Of a DNA stretch of 48,769 nucleotides, positions 9,894 through 37,979 are shown in pieces. Every line of letters begins with the position of its first letter. Within the stretch, counting starts at the first letter, position 1. Under the pieces are notes generated by a model. The model was given only the letters and a program-made list of their open reading frames with translations. It did no database searches and was not told where the DNA came from. The stretch is taken from the UHGV virus genome UHGV-0110022; one strand, given 5' to 3'. This stretch comes from a virus. A program made the translations under genes and the position numbers.

Positions 9894-10646
9894 ATGAACC
9901 TTGAAGCTTTACCAAAATATTACTCCCCAAAATCTCCAAAATTGAGTGATGACGCACCGGCGACAGGCTCGGGTGGTTTAACAATTACAGATGTGATGGC
10001 TGCGCAGGGGATGGTGCAGTCGAAAGCACCGCTTGGGTTTGCCTTATTCCTGGCAAAAGTTGGTGTTCAGGATCCTCAGTTTGCGATTGAAGGTCTGCTC
10101 AATTACGCGATGGCACTGGATAACCCGACATTGAACAAATTGAGTGAAGAAACCCGGCTACAGATCATTCCTTACCTTGTGAATTTTGCCTTTGCTGATT
10201 ATTCCAGGTCTGCGGCAAGTAAGGCTCGCTGTGAGCGTTGTGCTGGTACTGGATTTCATAATGTATTGCGCGAAGTGGTGAAACACTCCAGAAGCGGGGA
10301 GTCTGTTATCAAAGAAGAGTGGGTGAAGGAACTATGTCAGCATTGTCATGGTAAGGGAGAAGTCAGCACAGCGTGCAGAGGGTGTAAGGGTAAAGGTATT
10401 GTCCTGGATGAAAAAAGAACCCGGCTTCATGGCACGCCTGTTTATAAGATTTGTGGGCGTTGCAATGGAAACCGGTTTAGCCGTTTACCAACCACACTGG
10501 CGCGGCTTCATGTCAAGAAGCTGGTACCAGACCTGACGGATTATCAGTGGTACAAAGGATATGCAGATGTCATTGATAAACTGATTACAAAGTGCTGGCA
10601 GGAAGAGGCATATGCTGAGATGCAATTGAGAAAAGTGACGAAATAA
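9894..10646 (+). CDS. late-gene antiterminator Q-like protein (250 aa) with four CxxCxGxG zinc-finger repeats
   Basis: Position immediately upstream of a late-promoter-like region and the lysis cassette; size matches QuuQ-type Q proteins. Confidence 0.55.
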   Translation: MNLEALPKYYSPKSPKLSDDAPATGSGGLTITDVMAAQGMVQSKAPLGFALFLAKVGVQDPQFAIEGLLNYAMALDNPTLNKLSEETRLQIIPYLVNFAFADYSRSAASKARCERCAGTGFHNVLREVVKHSRSGESVIKEEWVKELCQHCHGKGEVSTACRGCKGKGIVLDEKRTRLHGTPVYKICGRCNGNRFSRLPTTLARLHVKKLVPDLTDYQWYKGYADVIDKLITKCWQEEAYAEMQLRKVTK

Positions 10647-10791: not shown

Positions 10792-12045
10792 ATGATGATA
10801 TTGTTTATGCAGGTTGTTACATGTATGGGCGGAAAAATGGATATCTTTGAGTCGTTTAAAGCAGAGAAGCAGAAAAACCATAAAGTTAATATTTACTATA
10901 CTCCTTCGAAACCAGTTTCTTCACCTTCGAATTTGAGAGGGAGGAATGAAGAAATACAGAAGATTTTAGCAGCATTAACAACCCCTGGTCGCCATTGTAT
11001 GATCTATGGTGATCGTGGTATCGGCAAAAGTTCCCTTGCTCTATCTACTCTTGAGGGAGGAAAAGAGCATGAGATTTTACCAGAAATAGTTTTTCAATAT
11101 CGCTGTATAAAAAATACAACGTTTAAAGACATTATTGAAAAAGCTGCTATTTTTATCGATGAAGCCTATAAACATGATAAAGTTGAAACTACTAAGAAGT
11201 ATGGTGCTAGAGCTCGTTTTTTAGATTTATTCAGCTTGGAAGGCTCTAGGGAAGAAAAAATTACTATTGAAAAAGAAGAGTTGACGGCAAATAAAGCTGC
11301 TTCTGTTTTACATCACCTCGAGTCTGTACTTCTTATTGATGAATTTGATGTTGTCAAAGAAGAAGTAAAGCATGAAGTAGCAGAGTTTGTAAAGCAACTT
11401 AGCGATGCTGGAAGTCCATTTAAAGTTTTGATAGTTGGCATAGGTTCTGATGGTGCAGCTTTAATGGCTGGGCATCAGTCAGTAATACGTTGTATGCATG
11501 AAATAAAGTTGCCGCGTGTTGAAGATAAATATCTATCAGAGATAATCGAAAGCGGTGAAAATGGATTGGGTTTGACTTTTTCGCAGCCAATAAAAAAATC
11601 TATTATCGAGATTAGCAGCGGATTCCCTTATTTTACTCATTTATTATGTAAGGAATGTGCAGAAGAGGCTATCCGCCAGTCAAAAACTATTATTGATAGA
11701 AGTATTTTTGAACAAGCCTTGATCGTTGCAGTGAAAAATACTGAAGGTCAATTAAAACGTTGTTACGATCTCGCCGTAACATCTTCTAGAACCGACATGT
11801 ATCCCAAGATCCTTTTATCTGCGGCAAAATTTAAAAATGAACAATTTAGCGTCAAAAATTGGATAGAGCAAATTGCTGAAGATCATGGCTTAGAGCTTAC
11901 ATATGGAAGTATGAATAATTATACTGGTAAGTTAATAAAAGCTGAGCGAGGAGAAATTCTTCAGTTAGTTAGAAGAGGGGTATATAAAATCACGGATCCA
12001 AGAATGCCAAGTTATATTCTTATGTGCCACAATGCGATCCCTTAA
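10792..12045 (+). CDS. stand-alone AAA+-type P-loop ATPase (cargo gene)
   Basis: Walker A GDRGIGKSS, Walker B LLIDEFD; strongly AT-rich relative to flanks; start uncertain (ATG at 10792, 10825 or 10837). Confidence 0.6.
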   Translation: MMILFMQVVTCMGGKMDIFESFKAEKQKNHKVNIYYTPSKPVSSPSNLRGRNEEIQKILAALTTPGRHCMIYGDRGIGKSSLALSTLEGGKEHEILPEIVFQYRCIKNTTFKDIIEKAAIFIDEAYKHDKVETTKKYGARARFLDLFSLEGSREEKITIEKEELTANKAASVLHHLESVLLIDEFDVVKEEVKHEVAEFVKQLSDAGSPFKVLIVGIGSDGAALMAGHQSVIRCMHEIKLPRVEDKYLSEIIESGENGLGLTFSQPIKKSIIEISSGFPYFTHLLCKECAEEAIRQSKTIIDRSIFEQALIVAVKNTEGQLKRCYDLAVTSSRTDMYPKILLSAAKFKNEQFSVKNWIEQIAEDHGLELTYGSMNNYTGKLIKAERGEILQLVRRGVYKITDPRMPSYILMCHNAIP

Positions 12046-12211: not shown

Positions 12212-12529
12212 GTGGCTATTCATATGCACGAAAAAGAGAGCCTTGCCGGAGCGTTCTGGCTCGTTTTGCTGATCATCGCAGGTTGGGGCGGTCTGGTCCG
12301 CTACCTGATAGATGTGAAGCAGAGTAAAGCAACGTGGAGTTGGATAAATGCTCTGGCTCAGATAGTGGTATCAGGATTCACCGGTGTTATTGGTGGCCTG
12401 ATCAGCATCGAAAGTGGATTCAGTATTTACATGATTCTCGCGACAGCGGGGATTAGTGGTGCAATGGGTTCGGTTGCACTGACGTACTTCTGGGAACGAC
12501 TGACAGGGGTGAAAAATGCAAAATCTTAA
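12212..12529 (+). CDS. holin (lambda S-like, class I, possible dual start)
   Basis: Three hydrophobic segments, charged C-terminus, directly upstream of endolysin; GTG 12212 and ATG 12224 four codons apart. Confidence 0.7.
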   Translation: MAIHMHEKESLAGAFWLVLLIIAGWGGLVRYLIDVKQSKATWSWINALAQIVVSGFTGVIGGLISIESGFSIYMILATAGISGAMGSVALTYFWERLTGVKNAKS

Positions 12530-12992
12530 TCCTCAGCGTAAAGCTTTCCTCGATATGGTGGCATGGTCAGAAGGAACGGATAACGGACGGCAGAAAACCA
12601 GAAATCATGGTTATGACGTCATTGTAGGCGGAGAGCTATTTACTGATTACTCCGATCACCCTCGCAAACTTGTCACGCTAAACCCAAAACTCAAATCAAC
12701 AGCAGCCGGGCGCTACCAGCTTCTTTCCCGTTGGTGGGATTCCTATCGTAAGCAGCTTGGCCTGAAAGACTTCTCTCCGAAAAGCCAGGACGCTGTGGCA
12801 TTGCAGCAGATTAAAGAGCGTGGCGCTTTACCGATGATTGATCGCGGTGATATCCGTCAGGCTATCGATCGTTGCAGCAATATCTGGGCGTCGTTACCTG
12901 GTGCAGGTTACGGTCAGTATGAACATAAAATTGGCGACCTGATTTCCCGGTTTAAAGAGGCTGGTGGGGTAGTAAATGAAGCTGAGATATAA
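12516..12992 (+). CDS. R: endolysin, lytic transglycosylase (lambda R)
   Basis: Near-identical to lambda R as recalled (QRKAFLDMVAWSEGTDNGRQKTRNHGYDVIVGGELFTDYSDHPRKLVTLNPKLKST). Confidence 0.9.
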   Translation: MQNLNPQRKAFLDMVAWSEGTDNGRQKTRNHGYDVIVGGELFTDYSDHPRKLVTLNPKLKSTAAGRYQLLSRWWDSYRKQLGLKDFSPKSQDAVALQQIKERGALPMIDRGDIRQAIDRCSNIWASLPGAGYGQYEHKIGDLISRFKEAGGVVNEAEI

Positions 12993-13368
12993 GCTGGTTA
13001 TTGTTGCCTTCTTTGTTACCGTCATTGGTTCCTTCATCTGGTCTGCCGGGCATTACTACAGCAAATATCTGCACGAAAAGGAGCGTGTTGATGAGGCTAT
13101 ACGAAATGCTGAATCAGCAACTGCCATTACCCGTAACGTTCTGCAATCACTGCAAATCATCAATACAGTTATAGAGGCTAACCAGCATGCAAAACAGCAG
13201 ATTGCACTGGAGTCACAGAGAACCCAGGAAGATATCAAAGTGGCTGTTGCGGATGATGATTGTGCTTCACGTCCTGTGCCTGCTGCCGCTGCTGACCGGT
13301 TGCGGAAGTACGCGGACAGTTTACGTGAACACTCCGGCGGTACCACTGCCAGCCAGCCTGACTTCTGA
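12976..13368 (+). CDS. Rz: i-spanin (Rz-like)
   Basis: N-terminal TM helix then coiled-coil-like region; directly after R. Confidence 0.65.
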   Translation: MKLRYKLVIVAFFVTVIGSFIWSAGHYYSKYLHEKERVDEAIRNAESATAITRNVLQSLQIINTVIEANQHAKQQIALESQRTQEDIKVAVADDDCASRPVPAAAADRLRKYADSLREHSGGTTASQPDF

Positions 13369-13504
13369 AACACCGATTCCAGTTGTACCTAGTCCACTGA
13401 CATATGGTGCTAGCCTGGAACTGAATGCGAGTTTGTTATCTGCATTAGCGCAATGCAATAGAGATAAAAAGGATATTCTAAAAATAGGATATCAAAATGA
13501 ATAA
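13253..13504 (+). CDS. Rz1: o-spanin lipoprotein (Rz1-like), +1 frame overlapping and extending beyond Rz
   Basis: Signal peptide with lipobox LLTGC, proline-rich mature part; begins inside Rz in another frame. Confidence 0.55.
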   Translation: MMIVLHVLCLLPLLTGCGSTRTVYVNTPAVPLPASLTSETPIPVVPSPLTYGASLELNASLLSALAQCNRDKKDILKIGYQNE

Positions 13505-13570
13505 ATATTTTCCGGAAAATGATTGTAACTGTGCTATAAATATAATCATCAAATAATATAAAGGTGAGTT

Positions 13571-14080
13571 ATGGAAAGGTTTATAAAATCAATTGAATCT
13601 TCAATTGAAAGTGAGAATTGGTTAGCGGCATTGTTTATGGCTCTTGCTATGCCTGATATTTGCAGGAGCGTTGAACGTCCCAAAATAGGTAAGGGTGAAA
13701 CAGGGAAATGGTATAAAGATTGGGTTTCTCGTTATCTTGAAAATAAATATACATCCGGTACACATGAACAGTGTCGATTTTATGCGGATGATTTTTGGCT
13801 GTATCGTTGTTCTTGTTTACATGCTGGACAGGATCCAGAGAACAGGAAAAGAATGATGCAGTTTAATTTTACACCACCACCTAGGCCAAATTGCCAAGTG
13901 CATTTAAATCACTTAAATGGCAAACTTCAGTTGCAAATAGATGTGTTTTGTCGAGATATGATTGAGGCAGTCAATCAATGGCGTACTGAGGTCGAGGATA
14001 CGCCAGAAATTAAGGCTCGTATGGATTCTCTGATAAATATATCATTAGCATCTTTTGGAACATTCATTGTATTTGGTTAA
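13571..14080 (+). CDS. hypothetical protein (169 aa), AT-rich cargo gene
   Basis: AAGGTGAG RBS; AT-rich; inserted between spanins and HNH; no recognisable motif. Confidence 0.55.
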   Translation: MERFIKSIESSIESENWLAALFMALAMPDICRSVERPKIGKGETGKWYKDWVSRYLENKYTSGTHEQCRFYADDFWLYRCSCLHAGQDPENRKRMMQFNFTPPPRPNCQVHLNHLNGKLQLQIDVFCRDMIEAVNQWRTEVEDTPEIKARMDSLINISLASFGTFIVFG

Positions 14081-14187
14081 ATATTAATGAAGTGAATTTT
14101 ACAGTGGGTACTAAAAGGTTCACTTCATTTAATGATTTCCCTAACACAAATTAGTTTTTAGAGAGGAAACTATTTAGGACATTAATA

Positions 14188-14538
14188 ATGCCCCCTCGAA
14201 CCCCAAAAGCCTGCCGTGTTCGCGGCTGCCGCTCTACAACCACAGACCCGTCAGGCTACTGCGAAAGCCACAAAAGCGAAGGCTGGAAGCAATACAAACC
14301 AGGACAATCCCGTCATCAGCGCGGCTACGGTTCGAAGTGGGACAGTATCCGCGCGCGTGTCCTGAAGCGTGACAAAGGCCTGTGTCAGTTATGTCTGCGC
14401 GCTGGTGTGGTGCGTGAGGCGAAAACTGTTGACCACATCATCCCTAAAGCGCATGGCGGCACTGATGCCGACTGTAATCTGCAGAGTCTGTGCTGGCCGT
14501 GTCATAAGGCGAAGACGGCCCGTGAACGGTTTAAGTGA
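14188..14538 (+). CDS. HNH endonuclease (terminase-associated)
   Basis: HNH motif (VDHIIPKAHGGTDADCNLQSLCWPCHKAKT); adjacent to small terminase. Confidence 0.85.
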   Translation: MPPRTPKACRVRGCRSTTTDPSGYCESHKSEGWKQYKPGQSRHQRGYGSKWDSIRARVLKRDKGLCQLCLRAGVVREAKTVDHIIPKAHGGTDADCNLQSLCWPCHKAKTARERFK

Positions 14539-33891: not shown

Positions 33892-34262
33892 TTAATACCC
33901 CACTGCCATCCAGTAAATTGAATTTGTTGTAGCAGAAGTGTAAGTAAATCTGATTTTAGTTCTGTTGGTACTTCCAATATCAAAGCCCACAGAACGGGCA
34001 GAAGGATCATTAGTTGAAATAAGAGCGTTTACCGAACGACAAGCAGCAGGGAAAGCTACAGGTAATGTTATATCAACTGTTCCAACACTTCCTCCGGTTG
34101 GTGAGACAGAAAAACTCCCCCATTGAATAATCATCCCCCCAGGTAATTTCTGGTATCCATTGGCGGTCAATGAGTTACCAAAGTTGTTCATATCCGGTAC
34201 CTGATTTTCTCCTGTCCCCACATTCCGTTTTGCCGCTTCTCCCAAACCAACGTTTATGAAAA
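33892..34262 (-). CDS. promoterless alternative tail-fibre C-terminal segment
   Basis: Open frame runs through the right recombination site (..INVGLGEAAK..) matching ..[10 protein letters not shown].. at the left site, so inversion would fuse it to the constant N-terminus. Confidence 0.55.
34237..34262. repeat. Pin recombination site (right inverted repeat)
   Basis: TTCTCCCAAACCAACGTTTATGAAAA; internal dyad symmetry typical of Hin/Gin-family sites. Confidence 0.65.
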
Positions 34263-34316
34263 TGCAGAAATAACGAGCAAATGGCATCATTCCTGCTTTT
34301 GTCAGAGGGATCCACT

Positions 34317-34871
34317 ATGCTTATTGGCTATGTACGCGTATCAACAAATGACCAGAACACCGATCTACAACGTAATGCGTTGAACTGTGCAGGATGCGAG
34401 CTGATTTTTGAAGACAAGATAAGCGGCACAAAGTCCGAAAGACCAGGATTGAAAAAACTGCTAAGGACATTATCGGCAGGTGACACACTGGTTGTCTGGA
34501 AGCTGGATCGGCTGGGGCGTAGTATGCGGCATCTGGTCATTCTGGTTGAGGAGTTGCGCGAACGTGGCGTTAATTTTCGCAGCCTGACGGATGCTATTGA
34601 TACCAGCACACCGATGGGGCGTTTTTTCTTTCATGTGATGGGTGCCCTGGCTGAAATGGAACGAGAACTGATTGTTGAACGAACAAAAGCTGGACTGGAA
34701 GCTGCTCGCGCACAGGGACGAATTGGGGGACGTCGTCCCAAACTTACACCAGAACAATGGGCGCAGGCCGGACGATTAATTGCAGCAGGAATTCCTCGCC
34801 AGAAGGTGGCGATCATCTATGATGTTGGTGTATCGACACTGTATAAGAAGTTTCCGGTCGGAGATAAATGA
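34317..34871 (+). CDS. pin: serine DNA invertase (Pin/Gin/Hin family)
   Basis: N-terminal MLIGYVRVSTNDQNTDLQ with catalytic Ser, C-terminal HTH; 184 aa. Confidence 0.85.
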   Translation: MLIGYVRVSTNDQNTDLQRNALNCAGCELIFEDKISGTKSERPGLKKLLRTLSAGDTLVVWKLDRLGRSMRHLVILVEELRERGVNFRSLTDAIDTSTPMGRFFFHVMGALAEMERELIVERTKAGLEAARAQGRIGGRRPKLTPEQWAQAGRLIAAGIPRQKVAIIYDVGVSTLYKKFPVGDK

Positions 34872-35197
34872 AACCGCAGGCTCGTCGTATGCAAGAAAGT
34901 GCTGCGGCTGGCTGGCCAGCTTCTGATAGTGCGAATATTGAATGATTTCTATCTGTTATAGATTTTACCGTATTTCGGCATGAATGAAACTGAATATCCT
35001 CCCACCGATTCTTCATGACTTTACGCCACTGTCTCTAGGGCTGCTATGTGCCAAAAGCAGACTGACTAACTCAATAGTGGGTCAGTCAAAATGAGGGATA
35101 CGTCGACTCCTGTTACTGTTATCAATTATATTGTAGAATCAGAAAGCAGGCGTCAAAGACCTTAAATATTATTCGATACCTTAGGGATGTAAGTGAT

Positions 35198-35680
35198 ATG
35201 CTCGACAATATGAATGAATATGAGGAATTCTTGTTCCATAGGATTGATGATTCGGATTTATTGACAGGATTTGTTATTGGCCATTTAGTGATTGAACATC
35301 TTCTTGAAGAGATAATTCTAGGCTATGACATCAAGCTCAGAAAACATTTTCTTACATTGAGTCATAGTAAAAAAATAAACTTCATAAATTCTTTGGAACT
35401 AATACCTGATAACGTAGCAAGTTGTTTGCAAAGTATTAACAAAATAAGAAATAAATTTGCTCATCAATTAGGTTACAAGCCGAATAAAGGTGATTTATTG
35501 AACCTAATTGAGCAATGTATAGATAGTTTTAACGATATGACCGACGGACTTGAACAACTTCATGGTGCTCTAAAACAATGTGATGATCTACTTGAAACAC
35601 AAGAAAAAGACGGAGTTGGGCTAGCTGATCTCTTTATACAAGTGGTCTACGATCTAGAGGGGTACGCCAAAAAATATTGA
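35198..35680 (+). CDS. HEPN-motif protein (160 aa), candidate abortive-infection/RNase-type cargo
   Basis: R-x4-H motif in IRNKFAHQ; AT-rich; lies between invertase and att fragment. Confidence 0.45.
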   Translation: MLDNMNEYEEFLFHRIDDSDLLTGFVIGHLVIEHLLEEIILGYDIKLRKHFLTLSHSKKINFINSLELIPDNVASCLQSINKIRNKFAHQLGYKPNKGDLLNLIEQCIDSFNDMTDGLEQLHGALKQCDDLLETQEKDGVGLADLFIQVVYDLEGYAKKY

Positions 35681-35893
35681 GTCATTATTCTTGGGGTAGC
35701 CCTCCAATTCGGTGACGCATATTTTTGTTAGTTATTGGTATTAACAGGTAACTGCCGCTTCTCGCTCATAGCGAAACTTAAACCTAGTAAACTCGTCAGC
35801 TCCGTGCCAGGATCGGAAGTTGCAAAGTTTCGGCATTTTATGCCAGTGAGTTCCTAATTTCTAATCAACCTCTTCATTATAGGAGTTAGTAAA

Positions 35894-36103
35894 TTGAAAA
35901 TCGATTGGCATAGCTCATTACTGACCAGTAACAATAGCATGGATAAAAACTATAAAAATACACAAAACGTTCGTCTTTTCATGATTAAGGAATGTGGTGA
36001 AGATTTTCGATTCGATCGTGAATTTATGATGTGGATACGTAATGATGATCCGAAAACTTTGGGTGATGTTATCAATGAGTGGAAACGCAGACATTCGTTT
36101 TAA
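35894..36103 (+). CDS. hypothetical protein (69 aa, TTG start)
   Basis: AGGAG RBS 8 nt before TTG; AT-rich. Confidence 0.35.
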   Translation: MKIDWHSSLLTSNNSMDKNYKNTQNVRLFMIKECGEDFRFDREFMMWIRNDDPKTLGDVINEWKRRHSF

Positions 36104-36382
36104 TAAGCCAAGCCCGCTTTTCGCTCATAACAGACATTCACTACAGTTATGGTAGAAGGTATGCATGCTGGGTGGGGAAAGTATGAAGGAAAAGAAGACT
36201 GCTGCGCCGTTTGTCGTCACATTTATCTTCATTGGCTATGCAAGTCGTAATACAAGGTGGGACAAAACTGAGACACATAAGGCCTCGCAATGACTTGCAA
36301 GGCTTTACATGTTTTGATGTGGTGGGACGTGTGAGCGCAGTGTTGATGGGGTAATGCTTTGAATTAGAAGCGGATTCTTATA

Positions 36383-36428
36383 ATTCGTAATGCGAAGGTC
36401 GTAGGTTCGACTCCTATTATCGGCACCA
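36383..36428 (+). tRNA. thrW: tRNA-Thr 3' fragment (anticodon loop to CCA end); prophage att core / attR-like
   Basis: ATTCGTAATGCGAAGGTCGTAGGTTCGACTCCTATTATCGGCACCA matches the 3' part of tRNA-Thr(CGU) as recalled; 5' acceptor strand GCCGATA absent upstream. Confidence 0.65.
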
Positions 36429-37008
36429 TCAACAGAAAATCCCGTAAAAACAGCATTCTTTAGCATGTTTATCTAACGGTTTGTAACTTCTGTTCTAACG
36501 TCTGTTAGCACTGGTAAACGCCTTTGCGTTGTATCGGCTCAAGTATTGTACAACGTACTGGCGGGTAGTTACCAGGCTCAAGCCCGAACAGCATTAGAAA
36601 TTATGCCATCCCTTGAAGCTAAAAGAGTTGCCGGACTCTCTAAACACATCACTTGAACCCTTAGCGATACGTTCCGCGCTTCGTGCGGCGCTCAATGATG
36701 CTACACGTCGAGATGACGTTGCAGAAAATAAACAGGCGTAATGTTGGGAAGACTAACCGGATCGGGAAAGAATCCGGCTCTGCCACGGTTTCGATCACCG
36801 GAGTATAACGATCACCTGATAAGAGAACGTGCTAAGGCTTTATCCTCCCTGCGAAGGGATTACACCCTGCGGAAGCGCTACGCGCCGCCTTTTCTTATGT
36901 GCCCAACACGGCACGTAATGGTCATCCATTATCTGCACCATTGTAACTTTCGTTGTACTGCCTCTCTGATGTACGTTGAGCGCTGGCAGATTCAGCGGAG
37001 GGGATATC

Positions 37009-37167
37009 ATGTCAAAAGCTAACCAAAAAGCAGCCACGAAGCGCAACAACCGTAAGATTCACGCCCGTAAATTCCTGGCAACACCAGAGGGGAAAGCCTG
37101 GCTTGCTAAGAAGCAGGAAGAGCGAGAGGAAATCAAGTTGGCGCGAGCTGCAAACTTGATGTTTTGA
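37009..37167 (+). CDS. small basic protein (52 aa)
   Basis: GGAGGGG RBS 5 nt before ATG. Confidence 0.4.
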   Translation: MSKANQKAATKRNNRKIHARKFLATPEGKAWLAKKQEEREEIKLARAANLMF

Positions 37168-37178
37168 GATGGGGCTAA

Positions 37179-37979
37179 TCAGCCCCTATTGCCCCTATGC
37201 TTTTTTTCGAATCTTGTCACAACTCTATCCAACCATTTGGGTTCTTCTCTAAGATCTGAGTAGTAACAATTTTCTGGAACCGCGTTCCAGAAAGCAGTTA
37301 TTGCGTTAGCAAAATCTACAAATTGATCTTCTGAGACATGTAAATCGTCATGGTTAGGGACAATCTGCGTGCCTCTAACATCGGTGGGGTTTGGGTAATA
37401 CTCAGGATGATCAACTGATAGTGTTTGATGTGCAGGGCCGTCTCCATGCTTGTATACGTTTACCACCAAGTTACAGGCTTTTATCCTTTCTCCGTATTCG
37501 GTTCCATTGATTGTGAGGCCAATCCATTCGAGCAAATCAATTAGCTGATGGAAAGTTAAATTCCAGATCATGGGGGTAATCAATTCTCTTTCACACCAAT
37601 TACTTAGCTCTTTGATAGTATGTTCTCTTAGTTTTTTATCAAACTGATGATACATACCTGCTGTCAACGCCAACAATACGGTATTTTGCATCTCCAGAAG
37701 CGACCATACATAATAAATTCCCTCATGATAGGCTTGCTCGTAGGCCGCCATTGGGTCATCGTTATCTTGATCAAAATACTCAGCAGTAGTCTCCAAAAAC
37801 TGTTGTTCTCTCTTCTCTGCTTCTTGTTCTAAATCACCAAACTGAGAGAGAAGCCGCCGCCTTGCCTCAGAAACGTAAAATTCATGGGGTTCAAGAAAGT
37901 ATGGAAGATCGGCTCTGGCTAACCAGAAGGTGACAAAATTTTCAGTAGACATACATTTCCTCAATGAAGCGATAGACAT
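37179..37979 (-). CDS. hypothetical protein (266 aa)
   Basis: Long ORF; no recognisable motif; start uncertain. Confidence 0.45.
   Translation of the reverse strand: MSIASLRKCMSTENFVTFWLARADLPYFLEPHEFYVSEARRRLLSQFGDLEQEAEKREQQFLETTAEYFDQDNDDPMAAYEQAYHEGIYYVWSLLEMQNTVLLALTAGMYHQFDKKLREHTIKELSNWCERELITPMIWNLTFHQLIDLLEWIGLTINGTEYGERIKACNLVVNVYKHGDGPAHQTLSVDHPEYYPNPTDVRGTQIVPNHDDLHVSEDQFVDFANAITAFWNAVPENCYYSDLREEPKWLDRVVTRFEKKHRGNRG

Follow-up and report, generated by a model that had tools for sequence, protein, structure and literature searches.

What does the AT-rich gene between the lysis and packaging genes of this lambdoid prophage encode, and does it belong to the phage or only travel with it? 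The window, meaning the whole stretch of 48,769 nucleotides analysed here (UHGV virus genome UHGV-0110022), is identical over its full length to positions 3,606,917-3,655,685 of the E. coli PEC414 chromosome, reverse-complemented. It contains a lambdoid prophage of the e14/SfV type, whose head is HK97-type and whose contractile tail is Mu-like. The features needed for the argument are the following.

9894-10646, + strand: gene for the antiterminator Q
10792-12045, + strand: AT-rich gene for a 417-aa ATPase
12212-12529, + strand: holin gene
12516-12992, + strand: endolysin gene
12976-13368, + strand: Rz i-spanin gene (PHROG Rz-like spanin, 4e-46)
13253-13504, + strand: Rz1-like o-spanin gene lysC, the left flank (RefSeq annotation of the identical PEC414 locus)
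13523-13570, + strand: conserved 5' regulatory stretch with an extended -10-like element, a second TATAAT and a Shine-Dalgarno sequence
13571-14080, + strand: 169-aa ORF, RefSeq WP_016236634.1 "hypothetical protein", predicted HEPN-like nuclease
14086-14141, + strand: terminator-like hairpin with the T-rich tail TTTAATGATTT (inverted-repeat and folding analysis)
14188-14538, + strand: HNH endonuclease gene, the right flank (Pfam HNH, 5e-15; annotations)

The lysC gene is nested in and overlaps the Rz gene, and the genes for a P27-family small terminase subunit and the large terminase subunit follow 3' of the HNH gene on the + strand. The same prophage carries other defence-like cargo, namely an nSTAND ATPase, a GIY-YIG protein and a type II restriction-modification (R-M) system, the R-M genes lying more than 20 kb from the 169-aa ORF.

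The initial annotation took the gene for an AT-rich accessory one that closes the lysis cassette, and its distribution in E. coli bears this out. The exact gene was detected in 19 of 5,426 complete E. coli genomes, with lysC on one side and HNH on the other every time, and blastn at higher sensitivity returned no further alleles. Sequence related to the flanks is present in about 1,280 genomes; in those that match on both sides, the flanks stand at varying distances, with nothing or with different cargo between them. The junction of one prophage is empty, with lysC followed by 26 bp and then HNH. Other prophages have two unrelated hypothetical genes there, both on the opposite strand, and in still others the cargo is a GrlR-family gene or further hypothetical genes. 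A conserved core function in related phages, named at the outset as the result that would speak against an accessory gene, is ruled out, because the gene is so rare and the junction does without it in other prophages; the gene is optional.

Alignment to the empty junction showed that homology resumes only at the ribosome-binding site and ATG of HNH and that the 3' end of lysC is not shared. The GC profile places the onset of the low-GC tract near 13455, within the last ~50 nt of lysC. The segment from about 13455 to 14187 is a self-contained, mobile and optional cargo cassette, a "moron" in the concept of Hendrix and Juhala, at the junction of the lysis and packaging modules. The features expected of a moron are present: presence/absence polymorphism, atypical composition, a terminator-like hairpin and a conserved extended -10 motif with inferred promoter activity. 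The initial annotation also placed bor and lom at the end-of-lysis position of lambda; this stands for bor, whose slot corresponds in position to that of the 169-aa gene, and does not stand for lom, which lies in the tail region.

The composition differs from that of the phage backbone, as had been claimed: GC content is 0.375 in the ORF and 0.346 in the stretch 13505-14187, compared with 0.48 in the lysis cassette, 0.555 in the packaging and head genes and 0.493 in the whole window (flanks 0.48-0.56). The ORF begins with ATG and has the strong ribosome-binding site first reported, the Shine-Dalgarno sequence AAGGTGAG at 13561-13568 with 2 nt between its end and the start codon. Against homologues of 71-74% identity dN/dS was 0.10-0.11, with dS saturated; on the strength of this ratio and of the large family described below, the ORF is a real gene, and a spurious ORF is ruled out.

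The TATAAT-like elements noticed at 13535-13546 are there, as TATAAATATAAT. Read from the sequence, the stretch comprises an extended -10-like TGcTATAAA at 13532-13540 and a second TATAAT at 13541-13546. A simple sigma-70 promoter scan called no promoter at 13535-13546, and the case for a promoter comes from conservation in homologues. TG-n-TATAAA(T) and the Shine-Dalgarno sequence AAAGGTGA are kept upstream of the homologues in Escherichia sp., Citrobacter, Serratia, bacterium BS0013 and phage ECP1, whose proteins are only 45-74% identical to that of the window, with saturated dS. Conservation covers the 45-50 nt 5' of the start codon in these loci, which have otherwise diverged; the consensus is ...CCTGTGATAATGCTATAAATAATCACCTAAAAAgATAAAGGTGATCTATG. 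At the Citrobacter locus the upstream motif recurs before the next cargo gene (DUF6979), and there it corresponds to a promoter that the scan did call (TTCACT, 18-nt spacer, TATATT, TG extension). The full 20-nt promoter motif of the homologues has no other occurrence in the window. We infer that the 169-aa gene has its own extended -10 promoter, the activity of which is predicted.

Downstream of the gene the inverted repeat is present as described, although it does not flank the gene as its first description had it: there is a single terminator-like hairpin, on the downstream side only. It has perfect 10-nt arms, ATGAAGTGAA (14087-14096) and TTCACTTCAT (14119-14128), and the arms can be extended to 20 nt (14086-14105 and 14110-14129) with 80% complementarity. 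Folded as RNA, the repeat (14086-14129) reaches -19.7 kcal/mol compared with -9.65 +/- 2.25 kcal/mol in 200 shuffles (z = -4.47), and none of the 200 was as stable. Too poor in G-C pairs, the hairpin escaped a generic terminator scan. The Citrobacter homologue has at the same place, directly after the stop codon, a GC-rich intrinsic terminator that the scan called (AACCGCCAATTGGCGGTT and TTTTATTG). The Escherichia sp. homologue is followed by a comparable GC-rich hairpin and T-run, read from the alignment and called by the scan on the minus strand only. The hairpin sequence itself is not conserved among the homologues, which have ordinary terminators instead. A search of Rfam with 13300-14300 gave no match, so a known RNA element or RNA antitoxin in this segment is unsupported.

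The same slot is used on different phage backbones. Escherichia sp., Citrobacter youngae and Serratia fonticola have homologues with 61-74% identity whose genes follow the lysis cassette and precede the gene for the small terminase subunit. Homologues with 41-46% identity fill this slot in Kosakonia, "bacterium BS0013" and Escherichia phage ECP1, a plaque-forming phage in which the gene is unannotated. The packaging genes beside the homologues are of at least three types (HNH with P27, Terminase_2/Terminase_3, Nu1/GpA), and the lysis genes include holins of four Pfam families and endolysins of GH24, GH108 or GH19 type. All the enterobacterial homologues follow holin, endolysin and spanin genes and precede the terminase genes, whatever the type of lysis or terminase gene.

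Structure prediction and a remote homology search had been proposed with the initial annotation. The 169-aa protein had no Pfam family at E<=1 and no match in NCBIfam or PADLOC v2; among the PHROGs it falls only in phrog_18591, of unknown function. Searches of PDB sequences with the single protein and with the profile gave chance-level matches only at E<=10 (E >= 0.68), with no HEPN or nuclease chain among them. A megablast search against the phage collection had no match, and the phage homologues were recovered by tblastn. A word-indexed search detected only 26 relatives, while an exhaustive profile search detected 2,853 clusters (50% identity) at E<=1e-3, 1,734 of them at E<=1e-10. A second profile search returned 1,432 proteins, the best 120 of which are all unnamed and without Pfam domains. 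We found no paper on the accession or the PHROG identifier.

The family extends over Proteobacteria, Firmicutes, Actinobacteria, Cyanobacteria, Bacteroidota, Chloroflexota, Planctomycetota, CPR groups and one archaeal MAG, and tblastn detected homologues in Arthrobacter, Gordonia, Bacillus (SPbeta-like) and Acinetobacter phages. When 113 diverse relatives were scanned one by one, Pfam gave noise only, with no HEPN family at E<=0.1, and NCBIfam nothing beyond noise. The DzbB model of the Dazbog system (PADLOC PDLC03836) matched six of the 113 weakly, with a best E of 1.2e-3, and matched neither the protein of the window nor ten further members scanned individually. The family is absent from Pfam and NCBIfam, and in PADLOC v2 a few members match DzbB, only faintly.

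The initial reading of the sequence recognised no motif; this is superseded by an invariant R-x4-H on a HEPN-like fold. In the alignment of the 113 members R79 and H84 are the sole invariant columns (113/113), and every one of the 150 listed representatives has R-[C/N]-x-x-x-H. Cys stands at position 80 in 105 of the 113 (93%), Asn in the other 8. D29 is kept in 112, the remaining one having E, and P28 (112), H111 (108), C31 (107) and C127 (101) are also conserved. In the protein of the window the motif reads R79-C80-S-C-L-H84 (nt 13805-13822).

Two AF2 models built from different alignments have one topology (pLDDT 88.4 and 91.2, pTM 0.84 and 0.86). Helix 1 (residues 2-13) is followed by helix 2 (17-35), which carries D29, a helical insert (44-60) and helix 3 (about 72-85), with R79 and H84 in its last turns; then come a three-stranded beta insert (96-122) with H111, helix 4 (123-141) and a short helix (145-152). 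The HEPN domain has been described as an up-down bundle of four helices in which an insert separates helices 2 and 3, helix 3 ends in an R-x4-6-H motif and helix 2 has an acidic residue; the residue right after the Arg is polar, mostly N, D or H, and the activity is that of a metal-independent RNase that needs the R and the H, usually at a dimer interface (Anantharaman et al. 2013, PMC3710099). The placement of R and H, the acidic D29 and the insert between helices 2 and 3 in the AF2 models agree with this anatomy, and the top structural matches were dominated by HEPN proteins. Foldseek gave nothing significant against the PDB (best E 1.4), and against BFVD it gave two matches only, both to uncharacterised members of the family. 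The residue after the Arg is usually Cys, which is not listed as typical for HEPN proteins, while the Asn form is canonical. We use the name HEPN-like because the anatomy fits HEPN, yet there is no profile link, no significant Foldseek match and a Cys after the Arg. The protein probably does belong to the HEPN superfamily, and its family has no entry as yet in the libraries searched.

The predicted fold also bears on the serum-resistance assay first suggested, which implied a surface protein like Bor or Lom. Such a product is unlikely, since the N-terminus MERFIKSIESSIESEN... has neither signal peptide nor lipobox and the model is a soluble bundle.

We analysed the neighbours for a partner. 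Among 62 genomic loci no neighbour family recurred except type I R-M, and the same was true of 121 flanking proteins; neither MNT nor an antitoxin-like protein was among the neighbours. The ORF of the window itself has Rz1 and HNH as neighbours and no adjacent antitoxin gene. Ranked by frequency, the top 25 Pfam families in the neighbourhood did not include DUF262 (DzbA). In five Clostridia loci and one Acidobacteriota locus the gene lies directly after hsdM-hsdS in a type I R-M operon; hsdR is immediately next in three of these six, the reading frames often overlap or abut, and all six members retain the PDIC and R-[C/N]-x3-H motifs. Chromosomal loci that adjoin recognised defence genes are a minority. 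In temperate phages of Arthrobacter a tyrosine integrase gene is the neighbour of the homologue, which is encoded on the other strand from the integrase genes around it.

Taken together, these results suggest a cargo cassette of promoter, gene and terminator whose product is predicted to be a solo HEPN-like RNase, the gene serving the prophage in abortive infection or defence, a reading to which we give a probability of about one half. In the lysogen the gene's own extended -10 promoter would drive its expression, and the protein would stay latent until a component of an infecting phage triggered it. It would then cut RNA, be it tRNA, mRNA or rRNA, through metal-independent transesterification; the R/H site would be composite and probably made by a dimer. 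Translation would stop and the infection would be aborted. The protein would work alone, with no antitoxin or partner, and for this reason we regard HepS (Gifsy-1) and AbiV, solo HEPN proteins of defence, as its putative functional analogues. Tha is a further analogue, and PrrC a further precedent for such a mechanism. The gene lies in sense orientation inside the late operon and is therefore expected to be transcribed during the prophage's own lytic growth as well, which makes a role in the lytic cycle possible. Its co-orientation with the late operon also means that, unless it has such a role, the protein must tolerate or evade the lytic products of its own prophage, as HepS does.

The main rival is that the protein is a late-expressed phage RNase serving the prophage's own lytic cycle, in host shut-off, mRNA turnover or the cleavage of host defence RNAs or tRNAs; we consider it unlikely. 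The gene is oriented with the Q-antiterminated late operon between lysis and packaging genes, the plaque-forming phage ECP1 has a homologue at the same place, and a HEPN-like catalytic motif would fit any RNase role. However, the gene is dispensable, being missing from almost all related prophages, and a conserved promoter-like element and a terminator of its own would be needless if only the late transcript drove it. The Arthrobacter phages carry the homologue by the integrase and on the strand opposite to the integrase genes, and most members of the family are chromosomal, some of them inside R-M operons and not in phages.

The protein could also be a non-catalytic helical regulator, adaptor or inhibitor, in which R-x4-H serves binding or structure and the HEPN likeness is that of a generic four-helix bundle. 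This, too, is unlikely: R79 and H84 are the only absolutely invariant residues of the 113 members and stand at the position of the HEPN catalytic pair, the acidic residue of helix 2 is conserved too, and HEPN proteins prevail among the structural matches.

Very unlikely in our estimate is a toxin of a toxin-antitoxin or addiction module that stabilises the prophage, with a small RNA, the transcript of the downstream hairpin or a tiny ORF as the antitoxin. The form of this proposal with a protein antitoxin was rejected, there being no conserved neighbour. No adjacent gene is conserved in the 62 loci, and MNT in particular is missing from the neighbours; two enterobacterial homologues are preceded by small ORFs that show no relation to one another; the hairpin varies in sequence and gives way to ordinary terminators in the homologues; and the Rfam search of 13300-14300 was negative. 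Moreover, solo HEPN proteins such as HepS can stay latent with no antitoxin (PMC13043305).

A Bor/Lom-like surface protein of lysogenic conversion (serum resistance, adhesion) is favoured by nothing more than the place of the gene, where the lysis cassette ends, and its AT-rich, moron-like make-up, and it is hardly credible, given an N-terminus (MERFIKSIESSIESENW) free of any hydrophobic leader, signal peptide or lipobox, a confident AF2 model of a soluble helical bundle, and a family found in Gram-positives, CPR bacteria, an archaeon and within R-M operons.

Returning to the prophage defence nuclease, we can also outline a bolder version of it, speculative and in our view improbable. The family may form a distinct HEPN-like branch with an R-C-x3-H active site, in which the cluster of Cys31, Cys127 and His111 together with the beta insert would act as a metal or redox switch. 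It would be a minimal, ATPase-less counterpart of PrrC that guards the type I enzyme in R-M operons and, in lambdoid prophages, senses a late or packaging component of an incoming phage and spares its own prophage.

If the defence reading is true, about 2,850 clusters now labelled "hypothetical protein" would become a new HEPN nuclease family and a single-gene anti-phage system, spread over most bacterial phyla and the temperate phages of E. coli, Bacillus, Arthrobacter, Gordonia and Acinetobacter. The junction of lysis cassette and terminase genes in lambdoid prophages would then be a recurrent slot for defence cargo with a portable promoter module, which would aid the mining of such genes. 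The gene is easy to test because it is small, stands alone and is native to E. coli, and it could reveal how a latent HEPN enzyme inside a late operon spares its own prophage.

Comparison with known systems starts with the morons themselves. Like bor and other morons, the 169-aa gene is optional, ends the lysis cassette, has an atypical composition and comes with its own promoter-like element and terminator. In lambda, bor is transcribed against the late operon and its product is an outer-membrane lipoprotein, whereas the 169-aa gene is co-oriented with the late operon and its product is predicted to be cytoplasmic and HEPN-like.

Among HEPN nucleases, Csx1 and Csm6 of type III CRISPR-Cas differ by their CARF sensor and CRISPR context, both of which the 169-aa protein lacks, and they have no sequence similarity to it. 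Toxin-antitoxin systems of the HEPN-MNT or RnlAB type differ by an adjacent MNT or RnlB-like antitoxin gene, which is absent at the 169-aa ORF. Dazbog is an abortive-infection system, and the DzbB matches are a weak lead to it.

PrrC and RloC resemble the family in being R-x4-H HEPN nucleases. The prrC gene sits within a type I R-M operon, in the same position as the family members found in R-M operons, which follow hsdM-hsdS and in three cases lie between hsdS and hsdR. PrrC and RloC have a large N-terminal ABC-ATPase domain, whereas the 169-aa protein is a single HEPN-like domain alone, and the copy in the window, unlike PrrC and RloC in R-M operons, is not adjacent to the R-M genes of its prophage. 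Several HEPN families are embedded in R-M operons, and the association of PrrC and RloC is noted in Table 1 of the same survey (PMC3710099).

Neither the 169-aa protein nor its relatives had a Pfam match to AbiV (HEPN_AbiV, Lactococcus), AbiD/F, AbiU2 or AbiJ, abortive-infection systems that each consist of one HEPN protein. AbiV typically has no motif His and uses another His (PMC3710099), while the 169-aa family keeps both R and H invariant.

Prophage-borne, single-protein HEPN abortive-infection nucleases are already known as a concept. Tha of S. aureus prophages is a HEPN protein activated by minor tail proteins (PMC11087260). HepS (STM14_3211) of the Salmonella prophage Gifsy-1 is a solo HEPN abortive-infection anticodon nuclease, activated by a siphovirus tail-tip protein and cutting tRNA anticodon loops; its family has 393 proteins by PSI-BLAST, with homologues capped at 250 aa, and its structure is PDB 9OIJ (Sargen et al., Nature 2026, PMC13043305). 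Of the ORFs in the LT2 Gifsy-1 record, the candidate STM2620 was not HEPN-like, and none had R100/H105. The 169-aa family differs from HepS in slot, in the context of the motif (R-C-x3-H) and in a beta insert with extra conserved Cys and His, and probably in sequence as well. What the two proteins have in common is that they are small and stand-alone, have R-x4-H and occupy an accessory slot of a lambdoid prophage, and both families have no conserved partner or antitoxin and have homologues scattered from Firmicutes to Enterobacteriaceae.

The low-GC tract at the junction between lysC/Rz1 and the HNH endonuclease gene (Rz1-HNH junction) starts about 50 nt 5' of the Rz1 stop codon, in the lysC/Rz1 3' end (window 13455-13504). 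Since the cargo-less junction does not share this low-GC tail, the imported segment seems to be where the final ~16 o-spanin codons come from. The same junction is occupied by a GrlR-family regulator gene in other genomes and by two hypothetical genes in E. coli JNE132847, whose proteins had no match in the Pfam search. A homologue of the HEPN-like gene was detected in Escherichia phage ECP1, in an unannotated gap of the published genome that separates the lysis region from the packaging genes; the ECP1 annotation missed a gene at this position.

Cargo and homologue between lysis and packaging genes in other genomes
L003 2057-3062 (E. coli JNE132847), opposite strand: two hypothetical genes (about 189 and 111 aa)
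KY979108.1 8614-9057 (L071 4001-4444, phage ECP1): HEPN-like gene homologue, 46% identical

We detected a promoter-like module of ~40 nt, GCATTCACnGAGTGCCTGyGATAATGsTATAwwTA, 5' of the HEPN-like gene in several genera (upstream regions at loci L077, L074, L005 and L071). A Citrobacter youngae prophage has two copies (L077 5940-5990 and 6555-6595), the second preceding the next cargo gene (DUF6979). This repetition before a different cargo gene, together with the presence of the module in several genera, suggests a portable promoter common to different morons (self-contained cargo cassettes) at the lysis-terminase junction. Only the 3' half of the module is retained in the window, and its full 20-nt motif has no other occurrence there.

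Additional cargo was found elsewhere in the prophage.

Further cargo in the window
10792-12045, + strand: second AT-rich cargo gene (GC 0.36), encoding a 417-aa P-loop protein, between antiterminator Q and holin
about 34120-37976 (L081 10794-14650 of E. coli PEC414, reverse-complemented): three cargo genes past the tail-fibre genes and the pinE invertase

The 417-aa protein matches the Pfam families nSTAND1 (3e-9), AAA_22 and AAA_16, phrog_6841 of unknown function (3e-119) and, weakly, PADLOC PDC-S59 (2e-7), and is a candidate STAND-type defence NTPase. At ≥80% coverage, just 5 of the 5,426 E. coli genomes have its gene, and the Q-holin slot of other prophages is taken by tRNAs or by another hypothetical gene. 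The prophage-end genes encode, by annotation, a LEM-3-like GIY-YIG protein, a DNA cytosine methyltransferase and a type II restriction endonuclease; therefore, several defence-like genes occupy separate slots of the same element.

Distant family members of the HEPN-like protein (174-203 aa) are encoded directly 3' of hsdM-hsdS in type I R-M operons.

Loci in R-M operons
L060, L064, L065 (Clostridia MAGs): hsdR directly after the family member, frequently with overlapping or abutting frames
L066, L069 (Clostridia MAGs) and L044 (Acidobacteriota): further family members

This arrangement resembles that of prrC, which has the same placement within a type I R-M operon.
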